Assembly (NCBI GenBank): GCA_030594205.1
Contig: JAUVFR010000005.1
Coordinates: 2,306 to 66,305, forward strand
DNA length: 64,000 bases
DNA from: Methanobacteriota archaeon
GTDB taxonomy: Archaea; Thermoplasmatota; Thermoplasmata; RBG-16-68-12; JAJISG01
Reading direction: 5' to 3'
Position numbers and translations under genes: made by a program. The notes below the pieces were generated by a model that saw nothing but the letters and a program-made list of their open reading frames with translations, had not been told where the DNA came from and did not search any database. Shown one piece after another: positions 8,464 to 63,876 of the stretch; position 1 is the stretch's first letter; the number at the start of each line of letters is the position of its first letter.

Positions 8464-9459
8464 GTGAAGGACGCGATCCGGACCAAGGAACTGACGCGGG
8501 TTTTCGGCGGCAAGAAGCGCCGTCTTCGGCCGCGAGACGCGCCCGAGAAGCGGGTGATTGCCCTTGACCGCGTGGACACCCAAGTGGCCGAGGGCGAGCT
8601 CTTCGGGCTCCTGGGGCCCAACGGGGCCGGAAAGACCACCCTGATTAAGATCCTCGCGACCCTCCTCCTGCCCACCTCCGGCTCGGCCACCGTCGCGGGC
8701 TACGACGTCGCGAAGGACCCATACCCCATCCGCCAGCGTATCAACATGGTCTCCGGGGGCGAGACCAGCGGATACGGCCTCCTCACCACGCGGGAAAACA
8801 TCTGGATGTTCTCCCAGTTCTATGGCATCCCCTCCAAGGTGGCGAAGGCGGAAATCGACCGGCTCCTGAAGGAGTTCGAACTCTGGGAGCGCCGCGATGC
8901 CAAGGTGCGGACCCTCTCCACAGGCGAGCGGCAGAAGATGAACATGGTCAGAGGCTTCGTCACGGATCCCGACATCATCTTCCTCGACGAGCCTACCCTC
9001 GGCCTGGACGTGTCGGCCGCTCGGGCTATCCGCCAGTTTATCCGGGGGTGGATTCAGGAGAACCATGCCAAGACCGTCCTTCTCACGACCCACTACATGA
9101 TGGAGGCGGACGAGCTCTGCGACCGCATCGCCATCATCGACAACGGCAGGATCCTGGCCTGCGACACGCCGGAACGCCTCAAGGGAATGGTGAAGCGGGA
9201 AGTCACGGTGAAACTGGAGACGGATCGTCTGAAGGATCCCAAGGCTTTCGACGTCATCGAAGGGGTCCAAAACTACGTGGTCAAGGAGGAGGCGCAGACC
9301 AACCGCACGTCCCTGACCTTCATCCTGGAGGACGATGCGCCCATCGGAGACATCATGTCAGAGGTCCTGAATCAGGGGAGCAAGGTCCAGTCCATGGAGA
9401 AGATCGACCCGACCCTCGAGGAGGTTTTCATCAGCCTGGTCGGGAAGGGGCTGGATTGA
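8464..9459 (+). CDS. ABC transporter ATP-binding protein (ABC-2 type)
   Basis: Walker A GPNGAGKTT, signature LSTGERQKM, Walker B IIFLDEPTLGLD. Confidence 0.85.
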   Translation: MKDAIRTKELTRVFGGKKRRLRPRDAPEKRVIALDRVDTQVAEGELFGLLGPNGAGKTTLIKILATLLLPTSGSATVAGYDVAKDPYPIRQRINMVSGGETSGYGLLTTRENIWMFSQFYGIPSKVAKAEIDRLLKEFELWERRDAKVRTLSTGERQKMNMVRGFVTDPDIIFLDEPTLGLDVSAARAIRQFIRGWIQENHAKTVLLTTHYMMEADELCDRIAIIDNGRILACDTPERLKGMVKREVTVKLETDRLKDPKAFDVIEGVQNYVVKEEAQTNRTSLTFILEDDAPIGDIMSEVLNQGSKVQSMEKIDPTLEEVFISLVGKGLD

Positions 9460-10316
9460 ACCGGGAGGACGCGCGGGTAAGCAACCCCCTCGTCCTTAAC
9501 TTCCGCGCCTTCATCGGACGGGCCTACCCCCGGGTCATCGGGGCGCACAGGGAGCTGAGCTGGATCTTCTTCAACACACTCCTGCCGCTCCTGAGCGTCG
9601 CGGCCTACGTCTTCGTCTACGCGGCCCTCGGGGCCCCCGCTGCGTTTGCAGGCTTCGTCATCCTGGGCGGCACGATGGTTGCCTTCTGGATGAACGTCCT
9701 GTGGAGTATGGCGGCCCAACTGTACTGGGAGAAGGAGATTGGGAATCTTCAGCTCTACATGATGGCACCCATGTCTCGGATGGCCCTCCTAGGGGGCATG
9801 GCCGTCGGGGGGATGGTCATGACCTCCACCCGGGCCGCCGCCACCCTCATCCTCGGCGTGCTCATCTTCCAAATCGTCCTCGTCGTCGTCAATCCCCTGC
9901 TCCTCGCAGGAATCTTCTTGGTGACCCTGGTCGCCCTGTACGGCATGGGCATGCTCTTCGCATCCGTCTACCTCCTCTATGGACGGGAGGCATGGAACAT
10001 CTCCAACCTGCTCCAGGAACCCGTCTTCCTGGGCGCGGGTTTCTACTTCCCCGTCCAGTCATTCCAGCGAATCCTAGGAGGCCCGGGGCGTTGGATTGCC
10101 ATCGGGGTCAGCCTCATCCCCATGACCCTCGGTCTGGACGCGATGCGGCAACTCCTCTTCCCGGAACTCCTCGAGTGGGCTTTCCTTCCGGCCGACATTG
10201 AACTCTACATCCTCATCGTGCTCGCCGTCGTCTTCGTCTTCCTGGCGCGCCGGGCCCTGGCCTACATCGAGCGTCTCGCCAAGCAAGAGGGGAGGTTGAC
10301 CCAACGCCATCTCTGA
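9456..10316 (+). CDS. ABC-2 family transporter permease
   Basis: The TTG at 9456 overlaps the ATPase stop. Six TM helices. The ORF-track 5' extension (9048) runs through the ATPase in another frame and is discarded. Confidence 0.75.
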   Translation: MNREDARVSNPLVLNFRAFIGRAYPRVIGAHRELSWIFFNTLLPLLSVAAYVFVYAALGAPAAFAGFVILGGTMVAFWMNVLWSMAAQLYWEKEIGNLQLYMMAPMSRMALLGGMAVGGMVMTSTRAAATLILGVLIFQIVLVVVNPLLLAGIFLVTLVALYGMGMLFASVYLLYGREAWNISNLLQEPVFLGAGFYFPVQSFQRILGGPGRWIAIGVSLIPMTLGLDAMRQLLFPELLEWAFLPADIELYILIVLAVVFVFLARRALAYIERLAKQEGRLTQRHL

Positions 10317-10420
10317 GCACCCACCTCCGGACCCTGCGGACGGCCGCTTGGCTCGGATGGCAATACAGCTCCAATTGGACCGACCCTTGGCTGTTCGCCA
10401 TCTACTCCATCATCAAGCCC

Positions 10421-11170
10421 GTGGCGGGCACCCTCATCTTGGTCTTCATCTACTATGTCGCCGCGGCCGCGGGCGGGGCCGCGCCTCCGGAGATGCTCGC
10501 CTACATCTTCGTCGGGAGCGCCTTCTACATGTTCGTGTTCCAGGCGTTCTTCGGGATGTTCGAGGTGATCCAGGGGGATCGGGAGTGGTTCCAGACCATC
10601 CGGTACATCTACATCTCCCCCATCAGCTACTACGCTTACATCATCGGACGCGGGTTCACCCAGATGGTCGTGGCGGGAATCGGCGTCCTTGTCGTCCTCG
10701 CGATCGGGCGGGGGCTCCTCGGCATCCCGATCGGCTTCAACCTCGCCCTGTTGCCTTTCTTCCTCGCCGTCCTGGTCCTCGGCCTCTTCATCACCATCGC
10801 CATCGGCGTGGCCATCGGAGGCATCACCTTCCTGACCGCCCGGCATGGCGGCGGGATGAGCGAAGGCATCGCGGGGGTCTTCTACGTCTTCACCGGCGTG
10901 ATCTTTCCGCTCTCCGTCTTGCCCGTGTGGGGGCAGGTCTTCGGCCAGTGGATCCCCCTCACCTACTGGTTCGAAGCCCTCCGGCGCGTCCTCCTCGAGC
11001 GGTCCCCACCCCAGGCCGACGCCTTCTTGATGGCAATCCCGGAGTCCACGCTCCTTCTCATCTTGGCCCTCTCCCTCATCGTGGTGAGCCTCCTCTCGCT
11101 GGCGGTGTTCCGGTACGTGGAGCACTTGGCCCGCAAGAAGGGCAAGATCGACATGACCACGGCCTACTAG
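10421..11170 (+). CDS. ABC-2 family transporter permease (second subunit); N-terminus probably extends upstream
   Basis: TM-rich 249 aa. The in-frame upstream sequence to ~10313 (…LRTAAWLGWQYSSNWTDPWLFAIYSIIKP) looks like genuine permease N-terminus, but no ATG/GTG/TTG is available there. Confidence 0.7.
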   Translation: MAGTLILVFIYYVAAAAGGAAPPEMLAYIFVGSAFYMFVFQAFFGMFEVIQGDREWFQTIRYIYISPISYYAYIIGRGFTQMVVAGIGVLVVLAIGRGLLGIPIGFNLALLPFFLAVLVLGLFITIAIGVAIGGITFLTARHGGGMSEGIAGVFYVFTGVIFPLSVLPVWGQVFGQWIPLTYWFEALRRVLLERSPPQADAFLMAIPESTLLLILALSLIVVSLLSLAVFRYVEHLARKKGKIDMTTAY

Positions 11171-11502
11171 CGACGCCGGCGGGCACGGGCCTCCCGAAGA
11201 AAGGGGTATCGGGAGACCCGACCGCATGCCTTGCAGGTCACGACGATCCGAGAGCGACGGAGGCGGACTGTGGCGGCGGCGCCCGGTGCCAGGAAGGCCC
11301 CGCATCCGCGGCAGTAGCGGCGCCGATACGACGAGGGGAAGGGAACGTTGTACCGCATCCCAAGCCGCCTGGCGAGGTCGACGTAGCGGTTGGCCCGGGG
11401 CAGGTTACCCCGCCGGGCTTCCTCGTCCGCCAGCTCGAAGAGGATGTCCATCCGTTCCCGAGCGATGCGACGCTCCAGGCCCTTCCTCCGCCGGCGGACC
11501 AC
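11167..11502 (-). CDS. rnp4: RNase P protein component 4 (Rpp21/Rpr2 zinc-ribbon subunit)
   Basis: IARERMDILFELADEE…RYVDLARRLGMRYNV…CRGCGAFLAPG……CKACG matches the Rpr2 family architecture. Confidence 0.8.
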   Translation of the reverse strand: MVRRRRKGLERRIARERMDILFELADEEARRGNLPRANRYVDLARRLGMRYNVPFPSSYRRRYCRGCGAFLAPGAAATVRLRRSRIVVTCKACGRVSRYPFLREARARRRR

Positions 11503-11570
11503 GGACTCCCCGAGGCCTCTTTCGCCCTCCCGCCTGATAAGCTTTATTCCCGCCCGTCCTAGGTCCTTCC

Positions 11571-50057: not shown

Positions 50058-50699
50058 ATGGGCATGTTGGGCCCGACTCGACGCCGGGAACTGGAAGCCA
50101 TCCTGACCGGCATGGAGCAGGACTTGGAGGAGAAAGATGCGGTCCGAGAGCTGGCCCTCAAGTCCAGTCGCGCGGTGGCACGGCTCTCCGTGAGTGCCGT
50201 CGGGTCCCTCCACCGGGGCAAAGAGGTCGCCGGCCTCCTGGAGGAGGCCCGGGAGGAGGCAAGCCGGCTGGGAAGCCTTCTCAAGGAACATCCCGACCTT
50301 TACCACTCCGGGTTCGTGGAAAACGCCCATCAGGACATGACCGAGGCCGCGATCGCCTACAGCCTTCTCCGGGATACGCCCTTGCCCAGTCCGGACGAGC
50401 TTGGCGTGACGAGCCGGGCGTACGTCTTGGGCCTGGGGGACGTGGTGGGGGAACTGCGCCGATACGCCCTAGAGCGCCTCGGCAAGGGGGACGTCGAGGC
50501 GGCCCGCGAGTCCCTGGAGGCCATGGAGATCCTATACGAGGGTCTCATGCGTTTCGATTTCCCACGGGCGGTGGCCGCCGTCAAGCGCAAGCAAGACATC
50601 GCCCGAAGCCTCGTGGAGAAGACCCGGGGGGAGGTCGCCGTCGCGGTCCGGACTCAGGCGCTGGAGCGGAAGTTGGATGAACGGTTTGGGGAGGCCTAA
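50058..50699 (+). CDS. Translin-family protein
   Basis: All-helical 213 aa with …RAYVLGLGDVVGELRRYALE… as in archaeal translin/TRAX. Confidence 0.6.
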   Translation: MGMLGPTRRRELEAILTGMEQDLEEKDAVRELALKSSRAVARLSVSAVGSLHRGKEVAGLLEEAREEASRLGSLLKEHPDLYHSGFVENAHQDMTEAAIAYSLLRDTPLPSPDELGVTSRAYVLGLGDVVGELRRYALERLGKGDVEAARESLEAMEILYEGLMRFDFPRAVAAVKRKQDIARSLVEKTRGEVAVAVRTQALERKLDERFGEA

Positions 50700-51467
50700 T
50701 CAGCCCCCTCGACGCCGCCTTCGCAGGTAGGCGCCCACGAAGAGCGCCACGACGAAGACCGCGATGGCGCCGAGGATGATAAAGAGGGGGTTGATGGGCT
50801 CGGCTTCGATCGTGAACACAGCCCGGAGGACGACGTCGCCAGTGGCCGGGTCGATGATGCCGTCATCGCGGAGGTCCACCCGGACTTCCAGGGTATGGGT
50901 CCCGACACCCAGATCCACGGGCAGGTAGGAGAAGCTCACCGACTTCGTCTCGCCAGGCATCAGGCTGTCGATCTCCGTCTCCGCCACCTGCTGCTCGTTG
51001 ATGAAGAGGGCGACTGGGACGTTCCGGACCTCGATGGAGCCCGTATTTCGCACCTGGGCGGTGATCTCCAAGGGGACCAGAACCCGGATCTGTTTCGTGC
51101 CGGTGCCGAGGGCAAAGTCGCCCCCCTTGGTCGAATTGCCCTCCACCACCAATGTGACGAACTGGTCGGCGAAGGGCATCGTGACGTTGAACGCGAACGT
51201 GGAGTTCACGGACGAGAGGAAGAGGGGGTCGTCCTCCAAGGGGGCAGCGCCTGCCAGGTCCGGTCCCCTGAGGAAGGCCTGGATGGACCAGGTTCCGTTG
51301 TTCTCCCCCGGTCCGCCGGCCACCGTGGCCGTCATCTCCACGGTGGCGCCCGTCGCCAGGTCGTCAGGCCCCGCAACGAACACAGCCACGGATTCCTGGG
51401 CCTGCGTGGGGAGAACCGGAAGAAGCAGGAGCGCGAGGGCCAGCAGGGGGAGGAGTCTCGCGCTCAT
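50700..51467 (-). CDS. Secreted surface protein with CARDB-like beta-sandwich domains and C-terminal TM anchor plus poly-Arg tail
   Basis: N-terminal signal peptide MSARLLPLLALALLLLPVLPTQAQ. NxS/T sequons. C-terminal …LFIILGAIAVFVVALFVGAYLRRRRRGG. Its start overlaps the aglB stop by 4 nt, so it is co-transcribed. Confidence 0.6.
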   Translation of the reverse strand: MSARLLPLLALALLLLPVLPTQAQESVAVFVAGPDDLATGATVEMTATVAGGPGENNGTWSIQAFLRGPDLAGAAPLEDDPLFLSSVNSTFAFNVTMPFADQFVTLVVEGNSTKGGDFALGTGTKQIRVLVPLEITAQVRNTGSIEVRNVPVALFINEQQVAETEIDSLMPGETKSVSFSYLPVDLGVGTHTLEVRVDLRDDGIIDPATGDVVLRAVFTIEAEPINPLFIILGAIAVFVVALFVGAYLRRRRRGG

Positions 51468-54400
51468 CGGCGCCGCCTCCGACCACGGTAGGTGAGGAAA
51501 AGCACGGTGAGACCAATCGCGGCCGCGGCCAAGGCCCCGTATAGCAAGACCGGGAACTCCGGGGGTCCGAGTCGCACGCGCTTCCCCTCAACCTGGAGTT
51601 GGTCCGCGGGGATCTGGAGGGAAGGGAAGCCTACCGCGACGTCGAGTCTGGATTCCACTTCATCATCCTGCTCGGAGAACGCGAGGAAGGTGGCCGTGCT
51701 CGCACTGACGCGACCCTCGGCCTGCAGTCGGAGGGTGACGGGCCGGGACTCGCCGGCCGGGACCACGATGCCCGTGATGTTGTCAGGGGAGATCTGCCCC
51801 TCAAAGACGAGTTCCGCCCTCCACCCCTGGGCCGCCAAGACCTCGGAGTTGGTCAGGACGAGCTCGAAGGTGTCCCCCCCGTTCCCATCGTTCGTCACAT
51901 CGATCTGGTACGCGAGCTCCTCCGCCTCCAAGATCGGCGGATCCTCGCTCAAGTCGATGGTCAGGCCACGGAACTGGAGGACCTCGACGAACATCGTCTC
52001 CAGCGAGACCACGGACGGATCCGTCGTGGATCGGGCGACCACCGTGAGGGTCCCCTCCGGGGCCTTCGCGTTCTCCGGGGTGGCGATCTGGACCGTCACC
52101 TCGGCCGAGGTCCCTGTGCCAAAGGGCAGACTCACCCTCGAGGGCCGGAAGCTGAAGACCCAACCCGCGGGGCGTCCCTCGAAACTGAATGTGTCCGCCA
52201 GGTTCCCCGTGTTAGTGACCGTGATTCTGTACACGAAGGTCTCGCCTGGGGCGACGAGGGCTCGCTGGTCGGAGTCCCACGTGACCTCCAAGGTCCTCAC
52301 GTCCACCCGCGTGAGGAGAGGATTCAGGAGGGTGCTGTCCGCCAGGTGCACCCCCCTTTCGAATCGGTACTCCACGGGGACGCCCCCCTCATCCCGCCTC
52401 GCGAGGGCCAGGAGATCGTAGGCTCCTGCGGGCAGGTAGACCTCGTACCCACCTTGAGCATCCGTGGTGAAGCTGGCGCTGCCAACCAACGATCGGAACC
52501 CGAGCTGGGCCGTGCGGCGACTGCCATCGGAGAGGATGGCGACCCCGAAGATCCGATACCCTTGTTCCAACGGGAGGGCCAAGGTCGTGGGGCGGTCAGG
52601 GAGCACGTCCAGCTCGGCCAAGGCGGCGGAATTCCCGATATCACGGAAGGCGTAGACGTGGTACGTTCCCGGGGCCAGGTCGACCAAGAAGGGGGCGCCC
52701 GCGGGCACATCGACGGTGACGTTGAGGGCCGTCTCGTTGGCGGCCTGGAAGGCGACTCGGGCCGAGGTCAACTGTTCGCCCAGGAGAACCCGAAGCTCGA
52801 CCGCTCGTGTGTCCAACGTCCGCGCAAAGAGGAGATCGGCGGTGCCGTTCTCGGTAAGGACGATGGTCTGGTCCAACGTGTAGCGTACGAAACGGCTCAC
52901 CTCGTCGAGGCGATCCACGCCAACCCACTCCGCCGTGGCTCGGTATGTCGCCGGGACCAGGATGGTGCTGTATCCGTCCGATCCGGCGCCGGGCACGACC
53001 ACCTGGGCGCCGTCGGCTAACCGGGTGAAGGCGATGGAAACGTCGGGGGTCACCGTCTCGCCATTGACTTTCAGTTGACCCCTCAAGGTGGCCGCCGGCT
53101 GGAAGGTGGTATTGAATTCGGCGGGATTCGTCAGGTCGAGCACGGTGAGCAGGGCCAAGGGCGACGGGAGGTCGGTCGCGCCGGAGACGGTGTACTCTCC
53201 GGGCTCCAGATACACGAGGTACTCCTCATCGGACTTCACGAAGACGCGATTGGGACCGTCGAAGAGGACGGCCACTCCGAGGGGGCTCCCCGAGCTGATG
53301 GTTCCTCGAACGCGGACCCGCTCCAGCACGGGGAGACTGAAGGCCTCGACCCCACCGCCGACGGGCACGCGAAGCTCCGCCGCCTCCCCCTGAACGCGTC
53401 GACTTCCGTCCCCGGGCGGCGCCTCCGCGTCCACGACGAGGCGATAGATGCCCGGTTGGACGGAGGCGAGCACGCTTCCGAGGGCCCCCGTCGCCAAGGT
53501 GGCGGAGGCGGCACCGTTGCTGACGGCCTCGAAGGAGACATTCAAGCCCGAGAGATCCAGGGGCCCGAGGGCGGTGAGCTGACCCGCCACGGTCACGTTC
53601 CGGGCCAAGAGTTCGATGGGGGCCCGAGCCCCGAGGTCCCGGGGGGGCAGCGGGCCGACCGAAACGGGCTCGAAGGCCTCCTCGTCGATAGACCAGACGT
53701 AATCTGTGTTCTCAAGGAGGGTCGTTTCGAATGCGCCTTCGGTCTCGGTCAAGACGGTAAACGTGGGCGTCGTTGGCGTCGAGATGCGAACATGGATTCC
53801 CGACAGGCCCTCGCCGGGGTCGTAGCTCATGTTCCCGTTGAGATCGCGGAAGACGCGACCCGGCGCGACCACGCCGGGAGATAACGTGAGGTTTAGGTCC
53901 GTAGGCCCGCCCACCGTGACTGTGGATACCTGCTGTCCCGTGACGTTCAGGGCCACGACCTGGTACTGCGCCGTCGGCAGGAACGCGACGAAGGACCCGT
54001 CGAGGTCGGAGGTGACGGCGTGTCGGGCTCCTCCCCCCTCGAAGGTCACGGTGGCCTGGGCGGCGACGCCCCCCTGGCCCGTGACGCTGCCTCCGACCCG
54101 GTAGGCGGTCCGGAGGTTGAATTCGATGGTCTGGCTCCCGGGCCCGATCTCCACCAACCCGAGGAATCCGAAGGTCCGTCCCCCTGCGAAGTGGAGGGCG
54201 TAGGCGTCGTAGGTTCCCAGGGGCAACGCGGTGGCGAATCGACTGGCGGCGTCGCTGGTCACCAGCAGCTGATTGGCCTCACCCCGGCGTTGCAAGGCCA
54301 CGGTCACGTGAGGCGTCGGGGCGAAGGAGAGCAGGGTGCGGCCCGTCACCATTGCCTGTGGCTCGACCCGGAGGTCCAATGTCGCCTCCGACCCTCCGAC

Positions 54401-57400
54401 GAGGGCGATCTCCCGCGGAAAGGCCCCGCGCTCACCCCCCTCCGCCTTCACGGTGTAGATTCCCTCGAAGAGACCGTCCAGGCGGTAGGTCCCGTTCTCC
54501 CCCGTCACGACGCTCGTTACCTCGCTCGTGGCCTGTTCGACGATCTGAACCGTCGCGGCGACGGGAGGCAAGCCGAATTCGTCCGTGAGCAAGCCGGATA
54601 GCGAGGCCCCAGGTACCGCCAGGTCCTGGTTTCGGTCCTCTCCCTGGCTCATTGTGAGGTTAACCGAAGCGACCTCCGTGCCGTTCCGGTCGAGAAAGAG
54701 GTGGTAGCGGGTCGGGACGAGATCTACCAACTCGTAGGCCCCGTCGGGCCCGGTGACGGTCGCCGCTTCGAGGGCATCTCCGGCGATGTCAAGAACGCCA
54801 ACCTGCAGCCCCGGAAGCCCTGGTTCTTCGGGGTCTCGCACGCTGTTCCCGTTCACGTCCATGAAGGCCGTCCCCCGGAAGGTCCCGGCCTCGACGATGA
54901 AGTCACGCTCAATGACGAAGCTAGGGAGGCCGGTCCCCGTCTCGTCCAGGGGGACCCGAAGGGCCTGAGCCTGGCTGATGTTGAATTTCTCCTCGATGAG
55001 CATGGCTCCGACTCCGGTGGCGCTATTCGCCGGACCGGTGGAGATGGCCAGCGTGGTCTCTCCGAAGAGGAGGGTCGCTTCGAAGAACCCGTCGCTGTCC
55101 GCGAACGTGATCGAGTGGGGGGTAAGGAGCTCGTCCAGGACCGTGACCCGTACCCCGGCGAGCGGCGTCCCCGCCTCGGTGGCCACGCGACCGCGCAGCA
55201 GGGCGCCGTCGAAGAACTTGAGAAACACGATGCCGCTCTGGAGGGCCGTGCGAGCGGCAACGTCGACGGTCCCCTCCCGTTCCCCCGCGGTGATCTGCCT
55301 CTGGAGTTCCAAGGCATCAAAGATGTTGAGGGCCGTGAACTCCTCGGTGAAGCTGGCGACCTCGTCGGGCGGATGGGGGTTGAAATAGGCCGTCCGGTAG
55401 ACCATCTTGAAGTGCTCCAGCATCCACCCGTGTCGGGGTTCGACGCTCGCCAGAGCCCCCGAGAAGGCCGGGAGGCCCTCGTTGGCTAGGCCCAAGGCCT
55501 CCCCGTCGGGTCCGAAGAAGATGCGGTAGAGCATGGAGCGGTACCAGGGGTCCAGATACTCGATGCGAATGTCCGAGATTTGGCCCCCTGGGGGGATCTG
55601 GTCTAGGTCGAACTCGCCCTGGGGCGTCACCGCGATGAGACGATAGAAGTCCACGGGGATGCTTCGGCCGTCCGCGAGTTCCGTCTTCCGGTGGTCCGTG
55701 AGCTTGGCTACGGCGTAGAAGATGCCGGTGCTGGTCCCGGTGAAGGGGATCAGCCGGGAGTCGACGGCGAAGTAGCCGATGGAGGCGCCGACCGTGCTCC
55801 GGAGGTCCCGGTAAAAGTCGGTCTGGGCATCGATCCCCAGGGCCTCGACGAAGATGGTGCGGAGGTAGATGATGCGCGCGTTCTGCTGCGAGAGACGCGC
55901 GTCCCACTCCCGGAACCGTTCGGGCTCCGCCCGGATCAGGGGGATGAAGAGGGCAGGCTGCCTCATCGCGTCGAGGACGTGGTCGGGGTCGAACCCGTAG
56001 GCGACCAGGACTGCCTTGGTGGCCGCGCTGAACTGGCCTCGGTTGGTCGCGAAGTCGCCATGGAGGAGCCGAACGTTCAAGACCGCGATGCCCTCGTTCT
56101 CGGATTGGGAGGTCAGGAAGTGACCCGCGTACTCCAGGCCGTTCTGGAAATTGTCGGCCACGGCGGGGTGCCGCCCGTCCTGGATGGCCTCGAAACCGTA
56201 GTCCCACCAGCTAAGGAACGCCGGTCGTTCCCACGTAGGAATGACTTCGGTGTCCTGGTCCCGTAACCAGGACCACGCCTGGGGGAAGTAGCGGTTGGGG
56301 AGGGGGAGCGTGTACCCGAAGGCCCCGAAATAGAAGAGGCCCTGGTCCGCCTGAGGGGGTCGCAGAAAGTCGGGGATCACCCGGAGGACTTCCTCCTGCA
56401 GGGCATCCTTGACCTCGAAGGGACTCCCCGCGTCCACCGCGAGCCAGGCATTGGGGAGGAACACGAGGATGGCCACGAGGAAGACACCCGCCACGTGGCG
56501 GATCTTGACCCCCCGGCGGAGGGCCCCGAGGCGGCTGCCTCCCGTGGTGGCGATGGCCTTCTCCACCTGCTCCAGCCCGAGGCGCTCGACGATCAGGATG
56601 ACGACCCAGGCCGCGGTGATGGCGAAGGCGGGCGAGGCGTTGAAGAGGAACCGCACTGCGGAGAGGGCCATGAAGATGGCCGCCACGATCCACACGAGCA
56701 CGAACAGGAAATCGGGCCGAGGACGTCGGATGAATTGGAGGGCCAACAGGACGATGCCCGCCAGGGAGAAGTAGAAGGTGACCGCGCCGAAGGAGAGGAT
56801 GACCTGACTGAGGTTCGGGGGCTGCGCCTCGGCGATGGTCTCGAAGACCTTGTTCGGGACGAAGTAGCCGAGTCCGGAGCTCAGGGCCGCCGCTACCGAA
56901 GGACTGTACACGGCCATGATGGCGGTCCCGGCTAGGAAGCCGAGGATGATGGGAGGGATCACCAGCATCCAGGGCAGACGGTGGAAGATGGCAAACACGA
57001 GCCCGAGACCGAGGGAGGCCAGGAAGAGATACAACGGGACGTCGAACCAGGTCCGTACCTGGCCCGTTAGCACGTAGTACGGTGCCGCCAAGAGGTGGGC
57101 GACGCCGAGCGTGATGGCGAAGACCAGGAGGATGCCCAAGGGGTCCTGGTTGCGAATCTTGTGGACCACAAGCTGCGCCAGGAAATAGACGACGATGATG
57201 ACGACGGCGTAGGCCCACCCTTTCCACGTCAGCGCGATGACCGCCAGGGCCGTGCCCGCCATGACGGCGAGGAGGACGGTCCTCCGGTTCTCTGTGAACA
57301 GCGCCCCGAGTCCCCGGACGACGGCACGAGGACGCCACCAAGCCTCGACCCAGGGGCGTTCCTTGAGCCCCGCCAAGGCCTTGAGGAGGAAGTAGAAGGC

Positions 57401-57919
57401 CGTGACGACGAAGAAGAGGACGAGGGCGTCGTGGTCTCCGTTGCTGAAGGGCGTCCGCTGGATGTGGGCGGGAAGGAGGGCCAGGAAGAAGGCGGCGATG
57501 TACGCCGTCCGCCGACCGAACATCTCCTTCGCCAGAAAGTACGTCGGGAAGATCGTCAGCGCGCCCCAGACGGCCGTCGAGAACAGGAAGGTCTGGCCGA
57601 CGCCGACCGATACGGAACCCTGGAGGGTGCCTACCACCTGGCCGACCAGAGCGACACTCCAGGCGTAGATGGGCGGCCGGGGATTCAGCATCCCCACCGG
57701 GAAGTTCAACATCGGATCCTGCAGGAGGTGCCGGCCGGTCGCGACGATGTTGTCCAGGATCCACCCGAAGTAGAAGGCGTCCGAGCCGCCGGAGACCAGG
57801 AAGTCCCGGATGGCCAGCTCGTAGGCGAAGAAGGCCCGGATGAAGAGGGCCACGGCGAAGATGCCGCCTAGGACAAGGAACGGGCTCACCCTTCTCCGTA
57901 GGGTTCCCTCGGTTTCCAT
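51464..57919 (-). CDS. aglB: Oligosaccharyltransferase AglB/STT3 fused to a ~1250-aa array of CarboxypepD_reg-like and CARDB beta-sandwich repeats, ending in a second C-terminal TM anchor (2151 aa)
   Basis: N-terminal ~13 TM helices and the catalytic WWDYG motif (…FLSWWDYGFEAIQDGRH…) identify STT3/AglB. Residues ~900-2100 contain at least 10 repeats of the pattern G.V……G.P..GV.V…TD..G.Y.…P.G.Y, two CARDB-like units (NTGNLADTFSFEG, NDGNGGDTFELV) and many N-glycosylation sequons. The C-terminus is …LLYGALAAAAIGLTVLFLTYRGRRRRR. Confidence 0.8.
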   Translation of the reverse strand: METEGTLRRRVSPFLVLGGIFAVALFIRAFFAYELAIRDFLVSGGSDAFYFGWILDNIVATGRHLLQDPMLNFPVGMLNPRPPIYAWSVALVGQVVGTLQGSVSVGVGQTFLFSTAVWGALTIFPTYFLAKEMFGRRTAYIAAFFLALLPAHIQRTPFSNGDHDALVLFFVVTAFYFLLKALAGLKERPWVEAWWRPRAVVRGLGALFTENRRTVLLAVMAGTALAVIALTWKGWAYAVVIIVVYFLAQLVVHKIRNQDPLGILLVFAITLGVAHLLAAPYYVLTGQVRTWFDVPLYLFLASLGLGLVFAIFHRLPWMLVIPPIILGFLAGTAIMAVYSPSVAAALSSGLGYFVPNKVFETIAEAQPPNLSQVILSFGAVTFYFSLAGIVLLALQFIRRPRPDFLFVLVWIVAAIFMALSAVRFLFNASPAFAITAAWVVILIVERLGLEQVEKAIATTGGSRLGALRRGVKIRHVAGVFLVAILVFLPNAWLAVDAGSPFEVKDALQEEVLRVIPDFLRPPQADQGLFYFGAFGYTLPLPNRYFPQAWSWLRDQDTEVIPTWERPAFLSWWDYGFEAIQDGRHPAVADNFQNGLEYAGHFLTSQSENEGIAVLNVRLLHGDFATNRGQFSAATKAVLVAYGFDPDHVLDAMRQPALFIPLIRAEPERFREWDARLSQQNARIIYLRTIFVEALGIDAQTDFYRDLRSTVGASIGYFAVDSRLIPFTGTSTGIFYAVAKLTDHRKTELADGRSIPVDFYRLIAVTPQGEFDLDQIPPGGQISDIRIEYLDPWYRSMLYRIFFGPDGEALGLANEGLPAFSGALASVEPRHGWMLEHFKMVYRTAYFNPHPPDEVASFTEEFTALNIFDALELQRQITAGEREGTVDVAARTALQSGIVFLKFFDGALLRGRVATEAGTPLAGVRVTVLDELLTPHSITFADSDGFFEATLLFGETTLAISTGPANSATGVGAMLIEEKFNISQAQALRVPLDETGTGLPSFVIERDFIVEAGTFRGTAFMDVNGNSVRDPEEPGLPGLQVGVLDIAGDALEAATVTGPDGAYELVDLVPTRYHLFLDRNGTEVASVNLTMSQGEDRNQDLAVPGASLSGLLTDEFGLPPVAATVQIVEQATSEVTSVVTGENGTYRLDGLFEGIYTVKAEGGERGAFPREIALVGGSEATLDLRVEPQAMVTGRTLLSFAPTPHVTVALQRRGEANQLLVTSDAASRFATALPLGTYDAYALHFAGGRTFGFLGLVEIGPGSQTIEFNLRTAYRVGGSVTGQGGVAAQATVTFEGGGARHAVTSDLDGSFVAFLPTAQYQVVALNVTGQQVSTVTVGGPTDLNLTLSPGVVAPGRVFRDLNGNMSYDPGEGLSGIHVRISTPTTPTFTVLTETEGAFETTLLENTDYVWSIDEEAFEPVSVGPLPPRDLGARAPIELLARNVTVAGQLTALGPLDLSGLNVSFEAVSNGAASATLATGALGSVLASVQPGIYRLVVDAEAPPGDGSRRVQGEAAELRVPVGGGVEAFSLPVLERVRVRGTISSGSPLGVAVLFDGPNRVFVKSDEEYLVYLEPGEYTVSGATDLPSPLALLTVLDLTNPAEFNTTFQPAATLRGQLKVNGETVTPDVSIAFTRLADGAQVVVPGAGSDGYSTILVPATYRATAEWVGVDRLDEVSRFVRYTLDQTIVLTENGTADLLFARTLDTRAVELRVLLGEQLTSARVAFQAANETALNVTVDVPAGAPFLVDLAPGTYHVYAFRDIGNSAALAELDVLPDRPTTLALPLEQGYRIFGVAILSDGSRRTAQLGFRSLVGSASFTTDAQGGYEVYLPAGAYDLLALARRDEGGVPVEYRFERGVHLADSTLLNPLLTRVDVRTLEVTWDSDQRALVAPGETFVYRITVTNTGNLADTFSFEGRPAGWVFSFRPSRVSLPFGTGTSAEVTVQIATPENAKAPEGTLTVVARSTTDPSVVSLETMFVEVLQFRGLTIDLSEDPPILEAEELAYQIDVTNDGNGGDTFELVLTNSEVLAAQGWRAELVFEGQISPDNITGIVVPAGESRPVTLRLQAEGRVSASTATFLAFSEQDDEVESRLDVAVGFPSLQIPADQLQVEGKRVRLGPPEFPVLLYGALAAAAIGLTVLFLTYRGRRRRR

Positions 57920-58034: not shown

Positions 58035-58211
58035 ATGAAGCGGGAGCTCATGGACATCCTCTGTTGCCCCGTCTGCAAGGGGAATCTCGAGCTCGTGGTC
58101 GCGCGGGAGGAGGACGAGATTCTCGAGGGCGGCCTCATCTGCCATCACTGCGACTTCACCTACGAGATCGAGGACGGCATCCCGAACCTGCTGCCGCCGG
58201 AACTCAGGTGA
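58035..58211 (+). CDS. Trm112-like zinc-ribbon protein (58 aa)
   Basis: MKRELMDILCCPVCKGNLELVVAREEDEILEGGLICHHCDFTYEIEDGIPNLLPPELR matches the Trm112/DUF343 signature (LL.CP.CKG.L……L.C..C…Y.I.DGIP.LL). Confidence 0.65.
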   Translation: MKRELMDILCCPVCKGNLELVVAREEDEILEGGLICHHCDFTYEIEDGIPNLLPPELR

Positions 58212-58926: not shown

Positions 58927-59385
58927 TTACTGCAGCGTTCCCGATGCCAGGACGCCATTTGCGTCAATCAGCTGGTAGGTCGAGCCCGCCGGGTAGGCTA
59001 ACACGTCGAGCAGGATCCTGTCTCCAGCCGCGAGGGCGCTTCCGGTCGTGATCGGCGAGTATGTTTCGCCGACCCCGTCGAGAGTGGCTAGCGTGGTAGC
59101 GGGGAACATAGCCGCCCCGCCCGCGTCAGCGATCGCCAACGAGACCGTGAGGTTGGCCTTCCCTGCGGGAACGTCCGCAAAGATAAGCACCCAGTTCAGC
59201 CCGTTGGAGCTCTGGCTTACGGAGACACCAATGGCGTCAGGCGTCGCTCCAGGACCGGAGACCAGCCCGGATACCATCACATACAAGACGGCAGCCAGGA
59301 CGACGGTGATCGCCACCATGAGGATGGTTGCGATGACCGGCGATACGGCCTTCCGATCCTTTCGGATCGCCCCAATTGTTCTCAA
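58927..59385 (-). CDS. Archaeal type IV pilin-like protein (class III signal peptide)
   Basis: MRTIGAIRKDRKAVSPVIATILMVAITVVLAAVLYV has a prepilin-peptidase (PibD) processing-site context plus the hydrophobic pilin N-domain. TTG start. Confidence 0.7.
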   Translation of the reverse strand: MRTIGAIRKDRKAVSPVIATILMVAITVVLAAVLYVMVSGLVSGPGATPDAIGVSVSQSSNGLNWVLIFADVPAGKANLTVSLAIADAGGAAMFPATTLATLDGVGETYSPITTGSALAAGDRILLDVLAYPAGSTYQLIDANGVLASGTLQ

Positions 59386-59415: not shown

Positions 59416-59473
59416 CGTGGAAGGTCCGGAAGTTAGGGTATAAAGGCTTCCTCGCGATTCTCATCCGTGGTTA

Positions 59474-60043
59474 TCAAGGCCCTTCGAAACGGACCACGTC
59501 GTCGGTCACGAGATTGAGGATGTTGGCGATCTCCTCGGAGGCGTACTCCTCCATGGAGAAGATGAATGTGTAGGCACCCCGCGCCCGCAGATGGTTCGTG
59601 AGCATGAGGAGGAACTCCGAGAGGACCCGGGGGCTGTTGTGGATTGCGAGGGAGTTGATGGAGTCGAGAACGACGACGGCTTCCGCGCCCCCCAGCTTCC
59701 GCAGGAGGAATTCCACCTTCAGGAGGACCGTTTCCAGCATGGTGGGGCTCTCGACGTACACCGCACGGTCGTCCCGCTCGCTTGCGCCCATGGTCATCCG
59801 GGAGACGCAATCCACGAAACGGGTGCGCGTGAGGTCCACCTCGAGGGTGGTGAGGGCCCCGATGATGGATTTGGAAGGGATCGTGGCCGTGACATAAACG
59901 GCATCGAGCTTCTTTTGCGGGGCGAAGACGTCCAAGATCCCCTGCACGGCATCGAAGTAGTGCTCCGCCGTCATCTCCAGGGCGATGGCCGAGGCGGGAG
60001 GGATCTCCAGGAGCTTTTGCACGCCGGTGGCCGTCGCCTCCAT
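59474..60043 (-). CDS. KaiC/RecA-fold protein lacking Walker A (degenerate, non-ATPase paralog)
   Basis: …AVVVLDSINSLAIHN…FLLMLTNHLRARGAYTFIFSMEE… reproduces the RecA/KaiC core after Walker B, but the N-terminus has no GxxxxGK[ST]. Its start codon abuts the stop of the upstream KaiC gene. Confidence 0.55.
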   Translation of the reverse strand: MEATATGVQKLLEIPPASAIALEMTAEHYFDAVQGILDVFAPQKKLDAVYVTATIPSKSIIGALTTLEVDLTRTRFVDCVSRMTMGASERDDRAVYVESPTMLETVLLKVEFLLRKLGGAEAVVVLDSINSLAIHNSPRVLSEFLLMLTNHLRARGAYTFIFSMEEYASEEIANILNLVTDDVVRFEGP

Positions 60044-60793
60044 CTAACCGCCTCCCTTGAGCAGGGGCGCCAGAAGGACGCCCACCGACGTCAGGTCTAG
60101 GATGTACTTGGCCCGGGAGTGCGTCGTGCCGCGCATCTTCACCACCTGCAGCGTGCGCAGCAGGTCCCCCTGCCGCTCCAGGTTGCCCAGCAGGATGACG
60201 CCGTCCACCACCGCTTCCTCCACCCCGTAGGGTGAGTAACGGTGTTCCCCCGCGGGGACCTCGGCAATGAGCAGGGCCGTGCACCCCTCTTGGGCGAGGG
60301 CGTGACTCAGGCCCCGGATGAATTCCCGGATGAGGTCGGCCGTGAGCAGGCGCGCGCAGATCGAGGTAATGGAGTCGATGACGAGACGTTTCGCGCCGTG
60401 GGATCTCACCGCCCCCACGATGGCCTTTATCAGGGCCTCGGACCCCTTTTGATCGATCTCCGGCGCCTCGGTCTTGGCTTTCTTGTAGAGCTCATGGAGG
60501 TCGATGAAGAGAATCTGCTTCTTCTCCAGCATCTGGGGGTCGTAGAAGTCGTACGGCATCATGTTCTCCTTGAGCTTCTCCGGAGGCTCCGTAGCCGCGA
60601 CGAAGATTCCCATCTCGCCCTCTTCCGCCCCGTGAAGAAGGAACTCGAGGCTCATGGAGGTCTTCCCCGTCCCGCAGCTGCCGGTCACCAGGATGGCGTT
60701 GTTTCGTGGCAGCCCCCCGTATAGGATGTTGTCTAGGCCATCGATGCCTGTCAGACACCTGTTTCGCCCGGCCGCGCTTTCCGAGCTGCCCAC
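60044..60793 (-). CDS. KaiC-like RecA-superfamily ATPase
   Basis: LTGIDGLDNILYGGLPRNNAILVTGSCGTGKTS (Walker A), KRLVIDSITSI (Walker B). Confidence 0.85.
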   Translation of the reverse strand: MGSSESAAGRNRCLTGIDGLDNILYGGLPRNNAILVTGSCGTGKTSMSLEFLLHGAEEGEMGIFVAATEPPEKLKENMMPYDFYDPQMLEKKQILFIDLHELYKKAKTEAPEIDQKGSEALIKAIVGAVRSHGAKRLVIDSITSICARLLTADLIREFIRGLSHALAQEGCTALLIAEVPAGEHRYSPYGVEEAVVDGVILLGNLERQGDLLRTLQVVKMRGTTHSRAKYILDLTSVGVLLAPLLKGGG

Positions 60794-62215: not shown

Positions 62216-62965
62216 ATGGACCGGGAGAAGCTCCGGGTCCTCCTCGAGGCGCTCCAGGACGGGGAGATGACCGTGGGCGAAGCCATGGAATCCTTTCGGC
62301 GCCTCCCTTTCGAGGACCTGGGGTTCGCCAAGTTGGACACCCATCGGTCCATCCGCCGCGGCTTCCCTGAGGTGGTGTACTGCCCCGGCAAGACGCCTGG
62401 CCAGGTTGCTCTGATCCTCCAAAGCCTCTCCCGGGACGCGGACCGGGTCCTCGCGACAAGGGCGGAGTCCGAGGTCTTCGACGCGGTGAAGGAGCAAATC
62501 TCGGAGGCCGAGCTCGCGTATTTCCCGGAGGCTCGATTGATCCTCGTGGGGTCCCCGGCCCCCCCTGAGCGCGGCCAGGTCGTGGTCGCCACTGCCGGTA
62601 CGTCCGATCGACCGGTGGCCGAGGAGGCGGCGGTCACCTGTGAGGTCCTAGGCAATCGGACCACGCGCTTGTACGACGTGGGGGTGGCGGGGTTGCACCG
62701 GTTGCTGGATCAGCGGGAACTGTTGGAGGAGGCCGAGGTGGTCATCGTCGTGGCCGGGATGGAGGGGGCGCTTCCGAGTGCCGTCGCGGGCTTGATCGAG
62801 GCGCCCGTCATTGCCGTGCCGACGAGCGTCGGATACGGTGCCAGTTTCGATGGGTTGGCCGCGCTCCTCGCGATGATGAACACGTGCGTGCCCGGGGTGG
62901 TGGTCGTGAACGTGGACAACGGCTTCGGGGCCGGCTTCTTCGCGAACCTCATCAACGCCGGCTAG
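62216..62965 (+). CDS. larB: LarB-like (PurE-related) nickel-pincer cofactor biosynthesis carboxylase/hydrolase
   Basis: The MDREKLRVLLEALQDGEMTVGEAME N-terminal helical domain plus PurE-like fold with …VVAGMEGALPSAVAGL… The ORF-track 5' extension is discarded. Confidence 0.7.
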   Translation: MDREKLRVLLEALQDGEMTVGEAMESFRRLPFEDLGFAKLDTHRSIRRGFPEVVYCPGKTPGQVALILQSLSRDADRVLATRAESEVFDAVKEQISEAELAYFPEARLILVGSPAPPERGQVVVATAGTSDRPVAEEAAVTCEVLGNRTTRLYDVGVAGLHRLLDQRELLEEAEVVIVVAGMEGALPSAVAGLIEAPVIAVPTSVGYGASFDGLAALLAMMNTCVPGVVVVNVDNGFGAGFFANLINAG

Positions 62966-63633
62966 AAGGGGCTGAAGAACAGGAAGCCGAGTACGGTCAG
63001 GGCCGCCAGGGGCACCAAAAGGAGGACGTACGCACCCACGTCCCACCGGACGATCTTGGAGCCGTCCAACGGGCCGAACGGGATCATGTTGAAGGTGCCC
63101 AGAAGGACGTTGATGAAGGCGACCCCGGCAACGAGGTCCGAGAGGGTGAGAGCCATGCCGATGGCGAAATTCATGCCGGTCAAGGTGAGAAGGAGCCACA
63201 CGAAGGCGAACGAGCCCCCGATGGCCAGGTTGACCCCCGGCCCGGCGGCGCTGATCCTTCCAATCTGGTGCTTCGACCCGAAGCCCTGAATGACCACGGC
63301 GCCAGGGGCGGCGAAGAGGAAGCCCACATAGGCCGTGAAGACCGCCAGGACCAGCCCCATGTACCACGCGCGAAACTCCGCAAGGAACCCGTATCGCTGG
63401 GCCACCACCTTGTGTCCCAGCTCGTGGAGGAGAAATCCCAGAGGGACCGCGGTGGCGGCGAGGATGAGAGCCCCGAGGAAACCGTATCGGAAGCGAAAGA
63501 GCAGGGCGAAGGCGACCGTGAGGACGGCGACGGCCAGGACGATCTGCCCTACCTCCCGTCGGCTGAAGCGGATTCGAGGCTTCACGGGCTGCCCGTAAGA
63601 GTACACGGCCATCGGACCTGCTAGTGACCCCAA
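62962..63633 (-). CDS. Site-2 protease family (M50) intramembrane metalloprotease
   Basis: HELGH zinc motif within TM helices; second ligand motif in …NMIPFGPLDG. Confidence 0.8.
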   Translation of the reverse strand: MGSLAGPMAVYSYGQPVKPRIRFSRREVGQIVLAVAVLTVAFALLFRFRYGFLGALILAATAVPLGFLLHELGHKVVAQRYGFLAEFRAWYMGLVLAVFTAYVGFLFAAPGAVVIQGFGSKHQIGRISAAGPGVNLAIGGSFAFVWLLLTLTGMNFAIGMALTLSDLVAGVAFINVLLGTFNMIPFGPLDGSKIVRWDVGAYVLLLVPLAALTVLGFLFFSPF

Positions 63634-63876
63634 GCGTATTTCTAGGTTGAGTGCCTTGGCGGGCGAGAATCACGGCGTTATGCCGGAGACTGGACAGTCC
63701 CCGTCCGGACGGGAAACATTAAGTTCGCACCTAACGATGAGGCGGAGAATCGCGTTCCTGCCCCGCTGCGTGCGGGCGGACCCGAGGGAGGTCGCTTGGG
63801 GATGAGTCAAACCAAGCCGGTGACGCGAGGCGGTGGACCCCGCCAGGAGTCTCGACGACGGGGGGGTGGATGAGAG

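Follow-up and report, generated by a model that had tools for sequence, protein, structure and literature searches.

In archaea, the STT3-type oligosaccharyltransferase (OST) AglB transfers a lipid-linked glycan to Asn-x-Ser/Thr sites of exported proteins, and N-glycosylation in this domain of life has been ascribed to an enzyme with one subunit and a length of 600 to 1,000 residues. A giant AglB of 2,151 amino acids (aa) and the 255-aa partner protein encoded directly downstream of it were analyzed here in a 64,000-nucleotide (nt) stretch of contig JAUVFR010000005.1 (positions 2,306 to 66,305, GenBank assembly GCA_030594205.1) from a Methanobacteriota archaeon assigned to the class Thermoplasmata; this whole stretch is referred to as the window. 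Archaeoglobus fulgidus AglB-L (PDB 3waj and 5gmy; 868 to 875 aa) belongs to the same enzyme family, with a collinear membrane domain and WWDYG core, and its first acidic, DxH/DxD, TIxE, and WWDYG motifs are all present in the giant AglB. However, the giant AglB is 2.5 times longer, extends the chain by 13 beta-sandwich domains and another membrane anchor, and comes with an obligate partner gene immediately downstream. A further point of comparison is the eukaryotic protein NOMO, a flexible rod of 27 to 30 nm with a C-terminal anchor whose length sets the spacing of endoplasmic reticulum (ER) membranes (PMC8327139). NOMO is composed of 12 prealbumin-like domains and belongs to the BOS complex found at the translocon (PMC11186639).

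The giant AglB and its extracellular arm

The gene is a single open reading frame (ORF) with an ATG at 57919, a stop codon at 51466 to 51464, and no internal stop, in a window with a G+C content of ~65% throughout; its parts are listed in Table 1. Pfam identified an STT3 domain at residues 73 to 434 (E value, 2.3e-13), and the NCBIfam model archaeo_STT3 aligned to residues 15 to 633 with 224 bits. This model, TIGR04154, represents an archaeosortase A system-associated subfamily, and the score (224.1 bits over model positions 2 to 602 of 831) lies below its cutoff of 450 bits. Hydropathy analysis gave ~13 hydrophobic segments in residues 14 to 495. Using phmmer against PDB sequences, residues 41 to 632 were found to be collinear with residues 41 to 621 of 3waj, such that GGSD47AFYF aligned with GGND47PWYY, GD162-H-D164 with ND161-H-H163, and T361-I-A-E364 with TIAE, and SWWDYG was identical. 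Across 30 homologues of 31 to 74% identity, D47, H163, T361, I362, E364, and WWDYG were invariant, and D162 and D164 were conserved in ≥90%. The WWDYG motif was present in 120/120 homologues among the matches listed from a search that returned 252 clusters in all.

The extracellular catalytic domain, which has a weak AglB_core-like match and matches to the A. fulgidus AglB C-terminal domain structures 3vu0 and 3vgp, is the best-conserved extracellular part of the protein and carries no N-x-S/T sequons. Identity to the most distant homologue was 40 to 50% over the membrane and extracellular catalytic domains (to residue ~905) versus 14 to 26% over the rest. As the catalytic module is the most conserved part, the enzyme is under purifying selection and is neither a relic nor a mere anchor. 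Beyond residue 620, the alignment with A. fulgidus AglB is unreliable, and a conserved block located there (I733-F-Y-A...K739-L-x-D742) was left unassigned to the DK/MI motif. Judged by its alignments, the segment from residue 1 to 905 constitutes a complete AglB in which every testable catalytic motif is conserved, and it is predicted to be an intact-looking AglB/STT3 OST. The fourth position of WWDxG was Tyr in 120/120 homologues among the matches listed; according to a 2024 review (PMC11407970), this residue is typically Tyr in TACK/Asgard AglB and eukaryotic Stt3 and varies among the Euryarchaeota.

Table 1. Features of the giant AglB-partner locus (coordinates are those of the window)
Feature	Coordinates	Strand	Basis or remarks
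Giant AglB gene	51464..57919	-	2,151 aa, single uninterrupted ORF; full-length homologues at 31-92% identity
Residues 1-500, multi-span GT-C/STT3 membrane domain with D47, D162-H163-D164, T361-I-A-E364	56420..57919	-	Pfam, NCBIfam, 3waj alignment, hydropathy
Residues 501-905, extracellular catalytic domain	55205..56419	-	WWDYG, weak AglB_core-like match, AglB C-terminal domain matches
WWDYG motif, residues 571-575	56195-56209	-	Within extracellular catalytic domain
Eleven tandem transthyretin-like/CarboxypepD_reg beta-sandwich domains, residues 908-1859	52343..55198	-	Iterated HMM, AlphaFold2
Two CARDB/DUF11-like beta-sandwich domains, residues ~1875-2095	51635..52297	-	Domain matches, NxGN motifs, AlphaFold2
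C-terminal transmembrane helix and RRRRR tail (second membrane anchor), residues 2119-2151	51467..51565	-	Hydropathy
Partner gene	50700..51467	-	255 aa; signal peptide, two beta-sandwich domains (second is CARDB), transmembrane helix 227-254, RRRRRGG
TATA-box-like element ATATATAA	57953..57960	-	Read from sequence; ~37 nt upstream of AglB ATG

The remainder of the protein forms an extracellular arm. Pfam matched CarboxypepD_reg (E value, 9e-33), SdrD_B (residues 1018 to 1099), and NPCBM_assoc (residues 1890 to 1963), and a hidden Markov model (HMM) iterated from a single CarboxypepD_reg repeat resolved the tandem transthyretin-like domains, which number exactly 11 in 29 of the 30 sampled homologues. 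The CARDB-like pair that follows had matches to NPCBM_assoc, FixG_C, B_ant_repeat, and choice_anch_T and carries conserved NxGN motifs, in which N1903, G1905, N2010, G2012, and N2013 were invariant and N1906 was found in ≥90% of the 30 homologues. Repeats of the window protein found their best match in the repeat at the same position for 11/11, 9/11, and 9/11 repeats of homologues at 53%, 36%, and 31% identity, respectively. Within one protein the repeats are barely alike, and neither repeat expansion nor homogenization was seen. This fixed count and positional orthology argue that the arm is an old, fixed, position-specific structure rather than an expanding adhesin-type repeat. An AlphaFold2 model of residues 903 to 2102, built on a 10-sequence alignment, was all-beta with a mean pLDDT of 87 and a pTM of 0.46, a value indicating that the single domains are confident and their mutual arrangement is not. 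At the C terminus, the hydropathy peak (residues 2124 to 2142) is followed by RRRRR, and a hydrophobic helix with a basic tail ended 120/120 homologues among the matches listed. By domain annotation, the enzyme thus continues into a fixed arm of 13 domains, set in number and order, and then a second anchor.

The original prediction, made from the sequence alone, had proposed an AglB/STT3 enzyme fused to a long beta-sandwich array of at least 10 repeats with two CARDB-like domains and a C-terminal transmembrane helix with a poly-Arg tail. This outline was upheld in full by the domain annotation, the single ORF, and the all-beta model. The "dozens" of sequons also proposed were an overestimate, as the protein has 16, although the enrichment in the arm is real: 14 of them lie there versus 5.0 +/- 2.1 expected from shuffling. 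Across the 30 homologues, sequon density was 1.68 per 100 aa in the arm versus 0.33 in the membrane domain. In 28/30 homologues the tenth repeat opens with a sequon (consensus LDNxTVSG); the window protein has lost it and reads TLDTRAVEL at this point (residue ~1704; ~52808 to 52810). Cysteine is absent from both the 2,151-aa protein and the 255-aa partner (50700 to 57919, reverse strand).

In several respects the arm resembles archaeal surface glycoproteins (S-layer glycoproteins and PGF-CTERM/PEF-CTERM substrates), being extracellular, rich in sequons and beta-sandwiches, and terminated by a hydrophobic helix with a basic tail. Unlike these proteins, the giant AglB has an enzyme rather than a signal peptide at its N terminus, lacks evidence of lattice formation, and has no tripartite motif conserved across the family. 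A PEF-CTERM archaeosortase signal, suggested by the letters PEF before the helix, was considered and rejected, as the motif is confined to the nearest clade and other clades carry unrelated residues. NCBIfam sorting-domain HMMs gave no match in the AglB tail, and only subthreshold matches in the partner.

The arm could alternatively be an adhesin or ligand-binding module directed at surfaces, hosts, or polysaccharides, with the STT3 domain serving chiefly to hold it in the membrane. CarboxypepD_reg, SdrD_B, SpaA, and Cna-B-type domains are indeed typical of bacterial adhesins, the arm evolves faster than the enzyme, and Foldseek searches with the arm model, which returned generic multi-Ig arrays with TM-scores near 0.1, included BaTIE and pilins among the matches. 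Against such a role, the number and order of repeats are fixed without homogenization, anchorage of both ends leaves no free tip, the genome bins carrying the family come from gut, rumen, soil, sediment, and subsurface alike, and the catalytic residues are invariant or nearly so. The adhesin-like character initially suggested for the arm was therefore abandoned, as 11 position-orthologous repeats in 29/30 homologues form the pattern of a structural ruler and not of a variable adhesin, and an adhesin is considered improbable.

That a chimeric contig or sequencing error had fused two genes was also raised as a possibility at the outset, and the unusual length of the protein is all that would speak for it. 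The first protein search returned its 252 clusters from NCBI, ENA, JGI, and Logan assemblies, including megabase contigs. The 120 listed had 94 to 100% query coverage at 31 to 92% identity and lengths of 2,117 to 2,205 aa, bar a few of 1,870 to 2,078 aa; these clusters were named Thermoplasmata or Methanomassiliicoccales. When one genome per species was scanned, relatives were encoded by at least 554 stretches, the best 80 of which were named Thermoplasmata, Methanomassiliicoccales, or broader archaeal labels (one Methanomicrobia) and were full length wherever the contig permits. When seeded with a Methanomassiliicoccus genome bin, the search returned 409 clusters, including a 2,173-aa protein of the cultured Methanomassiliicoccus luminyensis. 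Length varies little within the family, with a 5th to 95th percentile of 2,143 to 2,189 aa. The recurrence of this length and architecture in more than 200 full-length homologues from independent assemblies, a cultured species among them, excludes chance and misassembly, and all shorter matches were N-terminally truncated fragments in register with the full protein; the probability of an artifact is accordingly negligible, and the early doubt about a chimera or split ORF was dismissed.

To determine whether the arm exists apart from the enzyme, residues 952 to 2151 were searched against 1.84 billion representative proteins, and no stand-alone arm with a signal peptide was identified among 192 clusters at an E value of ≤1e-30. 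Every collinear match proved to be a giant AglB (2,028 to 2,404 aa) or a piece of one, in register and lacking its N terminus, and candidates for an unfused arm were rejected on this basis (one, P0281, begins 50 nt from a contig end). A subgroup of 2,334 to 2,404 aa (P0258, P0259, P0282, P0303, and P0330) carries ~55 to 110 additional aa at the N terminus and ~100 inserted aa behind the membrane domain; its arm is otherwise collinear.

Throughout the class Thermoplasmata, at identities from 92% to ~30%, the arrangement of giant AglB, arm, and partner is preserved. In the databases it is common under generic names ("carboxypeptidase regulatory-like domain-containing protein" or "STT3 domain-containing protein," and once "AglB" by the depositors), and the window protein is a typical member of a large family. 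A full-text literature search found no description of the giant AglB, its arm, or its partner, although an earlier mention may exist. The original prediction had called the architecture unusual and undescribed. The second part agrees with this search, and the first does not hold, as this is the normal state of the gene across the Thermoplasmata and Methanomassiliicoccales. The proviso attached to it, that the extension might be a common feature of AglB in related genomes, proved partly true, the extension being found in hundreds of species including cultured M. luminyensis.

The partner protein

The ATG of the partner gene lies within the ATGA that holds the AglB stop codon, giving the two genes a 4-nt overlap. 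This overlap, the signal peptide, and an anchor of the same kind as that of AglB (a helix followed by RRRRRGG) were all as first described. Several CARDB domains had been expected in the partner. Pfam identified one (PF07705, residues 132 to 200; E value, 3e-12; 46.9 bits against a gathering cutoff of 22.7), and the predicted structure, an AlphaFold2 model (pLDDT, 85) comprising two beta-sandwiches and a transmembrane helix, shows the N-terminal domain to be the other beta-sandwich.

Adjacency was assessed in 65 related loci (~30 to 92% AglB identity) that have a complete AglB gene and enough downstream sequence. In 62, a detectable partner homologue begins no more than a few bases from the AglB stop, and two more have, at the same -3 offset, a divergent ORF (256 or 263 aa) whose product carries a signal peptide, helix, and basic tail. 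The remaining locus has a frameshifted AglB, so that a partner lies directly downstream in 64/64 intact loci. Such strict adjacency and translational coupling across the family point to a stoichiometric, obligate OST subunit.

Eukaryotic OST offers a parallel, with an STT3-type catalytic subunit accompanied by small single-pass proteins that have an extracytoplasmic beta-sandwich ectodomain (ribophorin I and OST48). In contrast to these, the partner has no sequence or fold match to OST subunits; fold searches with it returned generic Ig-like matches only, and it is gene adjacency only that suggests a complex. A duplicate of the AglB C terminus was considered as the origin of the partner and rejected, as hhalign aligned only the transmembrane helix and basic tail, with 50% probability.

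It was initially proposed that the partner is a cognate substrate, made beside the enzyme that glycosylates it and presented or captured by the arm. Two partner sequons, N94-V-T and N111-S-T/S, were invariant in 16/16 aligned homologues, and the protein is exported and membrane anchored like the arm and translationally coupled to the AglB gene. Even so, AglB enzymes are general and serve many substrates, one small target would leave a conserved arm of 1,200 aa unexplained, and one-to-one adjacency with overlapping or abutting stop and start codons in 64/64 loci is the usual mark of a stoichiometric subunit. The substrate proposal was therefore weakened, since this adjacency fits an obligate subunit at least as well, with the two invariant sequons leaving some room for it. 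As a full account it is unlikely; substrate and subunit are nonetheless mutually compatible, and the partner may also be a glycoprotein.

In Methanomassiliicoccaceae loci, a gene for a 107-aa thioredoxin with a weak Pfam OST3_OST6 match lies directly after the AglB-partner pair (L002:15448-15771 and L085:12437-12760, both Methanomassiliicoccales/M. luminyensis-type loci) and is absent at the equivalent position of the window. Ost3/Ost6 are thioredoxin-like subunits of eukaryotic OST; the gene found here may be a generic thioredoxin only.

Topology, resemblance to NOMO, and possible roles of the arm

STT3-type enzymes have their C-terminal domain outside the cell, and by the positive-inside rule a poly-Arg tail should stay in the cytoplasm; together, these imply that the arm loops from membrane to membrane. 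Its shape on the cell surface would then be a loop or arch whose two feet stand in the cytoplasmic membrane. Given the approximately threefold enrichment of sequons, the arm itself is most likely N-glycosylated, and its fixed length and order suggest that it most likely acts as a structural scaffold or spacer of set length rather than as a ligand-binding tip. The partner would probably dock on or near the membrane-proximal end. Such a scaffold would keep the active site within a defined canopy of glycoproteins in organisms without an S-layer. Cultured relatives have neither an S-layer nor a cell wall, and M. luminyensis is reported to have two membranes (PMC10673518, PMC4243693), which makes a role in canopy building or spacing attractive.

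Overall, a Thermoplasmata-type AglB that acts as a two-subunit OST, with the arm as a fixed-length and probably glycosylated scaffold looping back to the membrane, is favored with moderate confidence. Several points weigh against this interpretation. Glycosylation of the arm, its loop topology, the complex with the partner, and the spacer role are all things that we infer, and the giant AglB may not be the sole AglB of these genomes. The interdomain geometry of the arm is uncertain in the model (pTM of 0.46), its fold searches gave generic multi-Ig arrays only, and its similarity to NOMO is at the repeat level and not collinear. Moreover, the DK/MI motif of the Ser/Thr pocket was not placed with confidence, the partner fold has no specific match to any OST subunit, and its hhalign alignment with the AglB C terminus covers the anchor alone.

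When the family profile was compared with all PDB sequences, the top match was human NOMO2 (E value, 5e-30); A. fulgidus AglB was also matched (E value, 1.6e-22). Homologues of the giant AglB additionally matched the Pfam families NOMO_5th, NOMO1-like_9th, and NOMO1-like_2nd. The arm and NOMO (PDB 9c7v) are alike in size (~1,250 aa versus 1,222 to 1,267 aa) and in plan, NOMO having ~12 prealbumin/transthyretin-like domains, a C-terminal transmembrane helix, and a short tail where the giant AglB has 11 plus the 2 CARDB-like domains and RRRRR. They are also alike in setting, each lying beside the protein-export and glycosylation machinery of its own membrane. NOMO differs in being a stand-alone type I protein that associates with Nicalin and TMEM147; the arm was found fused to STT3 only, and homologues of Nicalin and TMEM147 were not searched for. 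It also belongs to eukaryotes, whereas the giant AglB lineage is Thermoplasmata and not the Asgard relatives of eukaryotes.

Orthology of the arm to NOMO was considered and ruled out. The profile matches are significant but out of order (profile residues 1401 to 1562 match NOMO residues 70 to 231, and residues 1062 to 1262 match both 271 to 478 and 900 to 1082), and the Foldseek matches were generic, with NOMO not in the top 50 fold matches of the arm model. BaTIE, one of those matches, is the structure reported to be most similar to NOMO1 (PMC8327139). On the strength of the profile comparisons, the relation is one of a common domain family and a common plan. By analogy, the proposed assembly of arm and partner may be comparable to the NOMO spacer and to the single-pass beta-sandwich accessory subunits of eukaryotic OST. 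A more ambitious proposal treats the arm as a molecular ruler, in kind a homologue of NOMO, that with the partner makes AglB a multisubunit envelope-organizing machine, whether as an arch that builds and spaces a glycoprotein canopy in place of the S-layer or as a tether reaching the reported outer membrane of M. luminyensis. This is rather unlikely, but if true it would provide a prokaryotic precedent for the physical coupling of an OST to a NOMO-type spacer beside the export machinery, and a candidate for the envelope scaffold that is missing in wall-less Thermoplasmata.

Another arrangement would place the STT3 domain in the cytoplasmic membrane and the C-terminal helix in an outer membrane, with the 13-domain rod setting the width of a periplasm-like space in Thermoplasmata that have two membranes. 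The occurrence of a giant AglB in M. luminyensis, with its two reported membranes (PMC4243693, PMC10673518), is in keeping with this, as is the fixed length of the arm, which recalls the ER spacer NOMO (PMC8327139). However, the ultrastructure data for M. luminyensis have been described as poor (PMC4243693), and the helix with its trailing poly-Arg is in keeping with stop-transfer anchoring in the cytoplasmic membrane. In addition, the family occurs in hundreds of species, and Methanomethylophilus alvi, a possible carrier of the gene from the same order, has a single membrane (PMC10673518). A bridge between two membranes is thus less likely than a canopy or spacing role and is considered very improbable.

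A class that includes human-gut and rumen methanogens carries an AglB of ~2,150 residues with a 13-domain arm, a second anchor, and an adjoining partner. If arm and partner are functional, this would be a multicomponent OST tied to a surface scaffold, and would bear on what organizes the envelope of S-layer-less Thermoplasmata and on how NOMO, ribophorins, and similar luminal beta-sandwich proteins came to surround the eukaryotic enzyme. The presence of the family in cultured M. luminyensis makes these questions directly testable.

Promoter region and neighboring genes

AglB and its partner have the appearance of an operon of two genes with a dedicated archaeal promoter, from which they would be cotranscribed. 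The intergenic region 5' of AglB is 115 nt long and divergent, being common to AglB and a 58-aa Trm112-like zinc-ribbon ORF (MKRELMDILCCPVCKG...; 58035 to 58211, forward strand). Within it, ATATATAA is a putative promoter element by its agreement with the archaeal TATA consensus. The same divergent Trm112 arrangement recurs in a related locus (L001), in which the gene is annotated as PF03966 Trm112p. At the other end of the pair, a translin-like gene (50058 to 50699, forward strand) converges on the partner gene (50700 to 51467, reverse strand) with zero bases between the stop codons, leaving no room for a terminator of either gene.

A glycosylation gene cluster around AglB was looked for and rejected, as the flanking genes are housekeeping: purH, folD, purD, translin, a Tsr3-like ribosome biogenesis gene, the Trm112-like ORF, a type IV pilin, and OMP decarboxylase/RraA. 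The translin-purD synteny downstream of the AglB-partner pair is kept down to 31% AglB identity. Neither a second STT3 gene nor a further transthyretin-like array was found in the window. At the thresholds used, four ORFs had no Pfam match, located at 9048 to 10316 (422 aa), 10348 to 11562 (404 aa), 59433 to 60284 (283 aa), and 62648 to 63673 (341 aa). Pilins are among the classic substrates of AglB, and the archaeal type IV pilin gene (Pilin_N; 58927 to 59385, reverse strand) is found two genes upstream of AglB, with synteny in L001.

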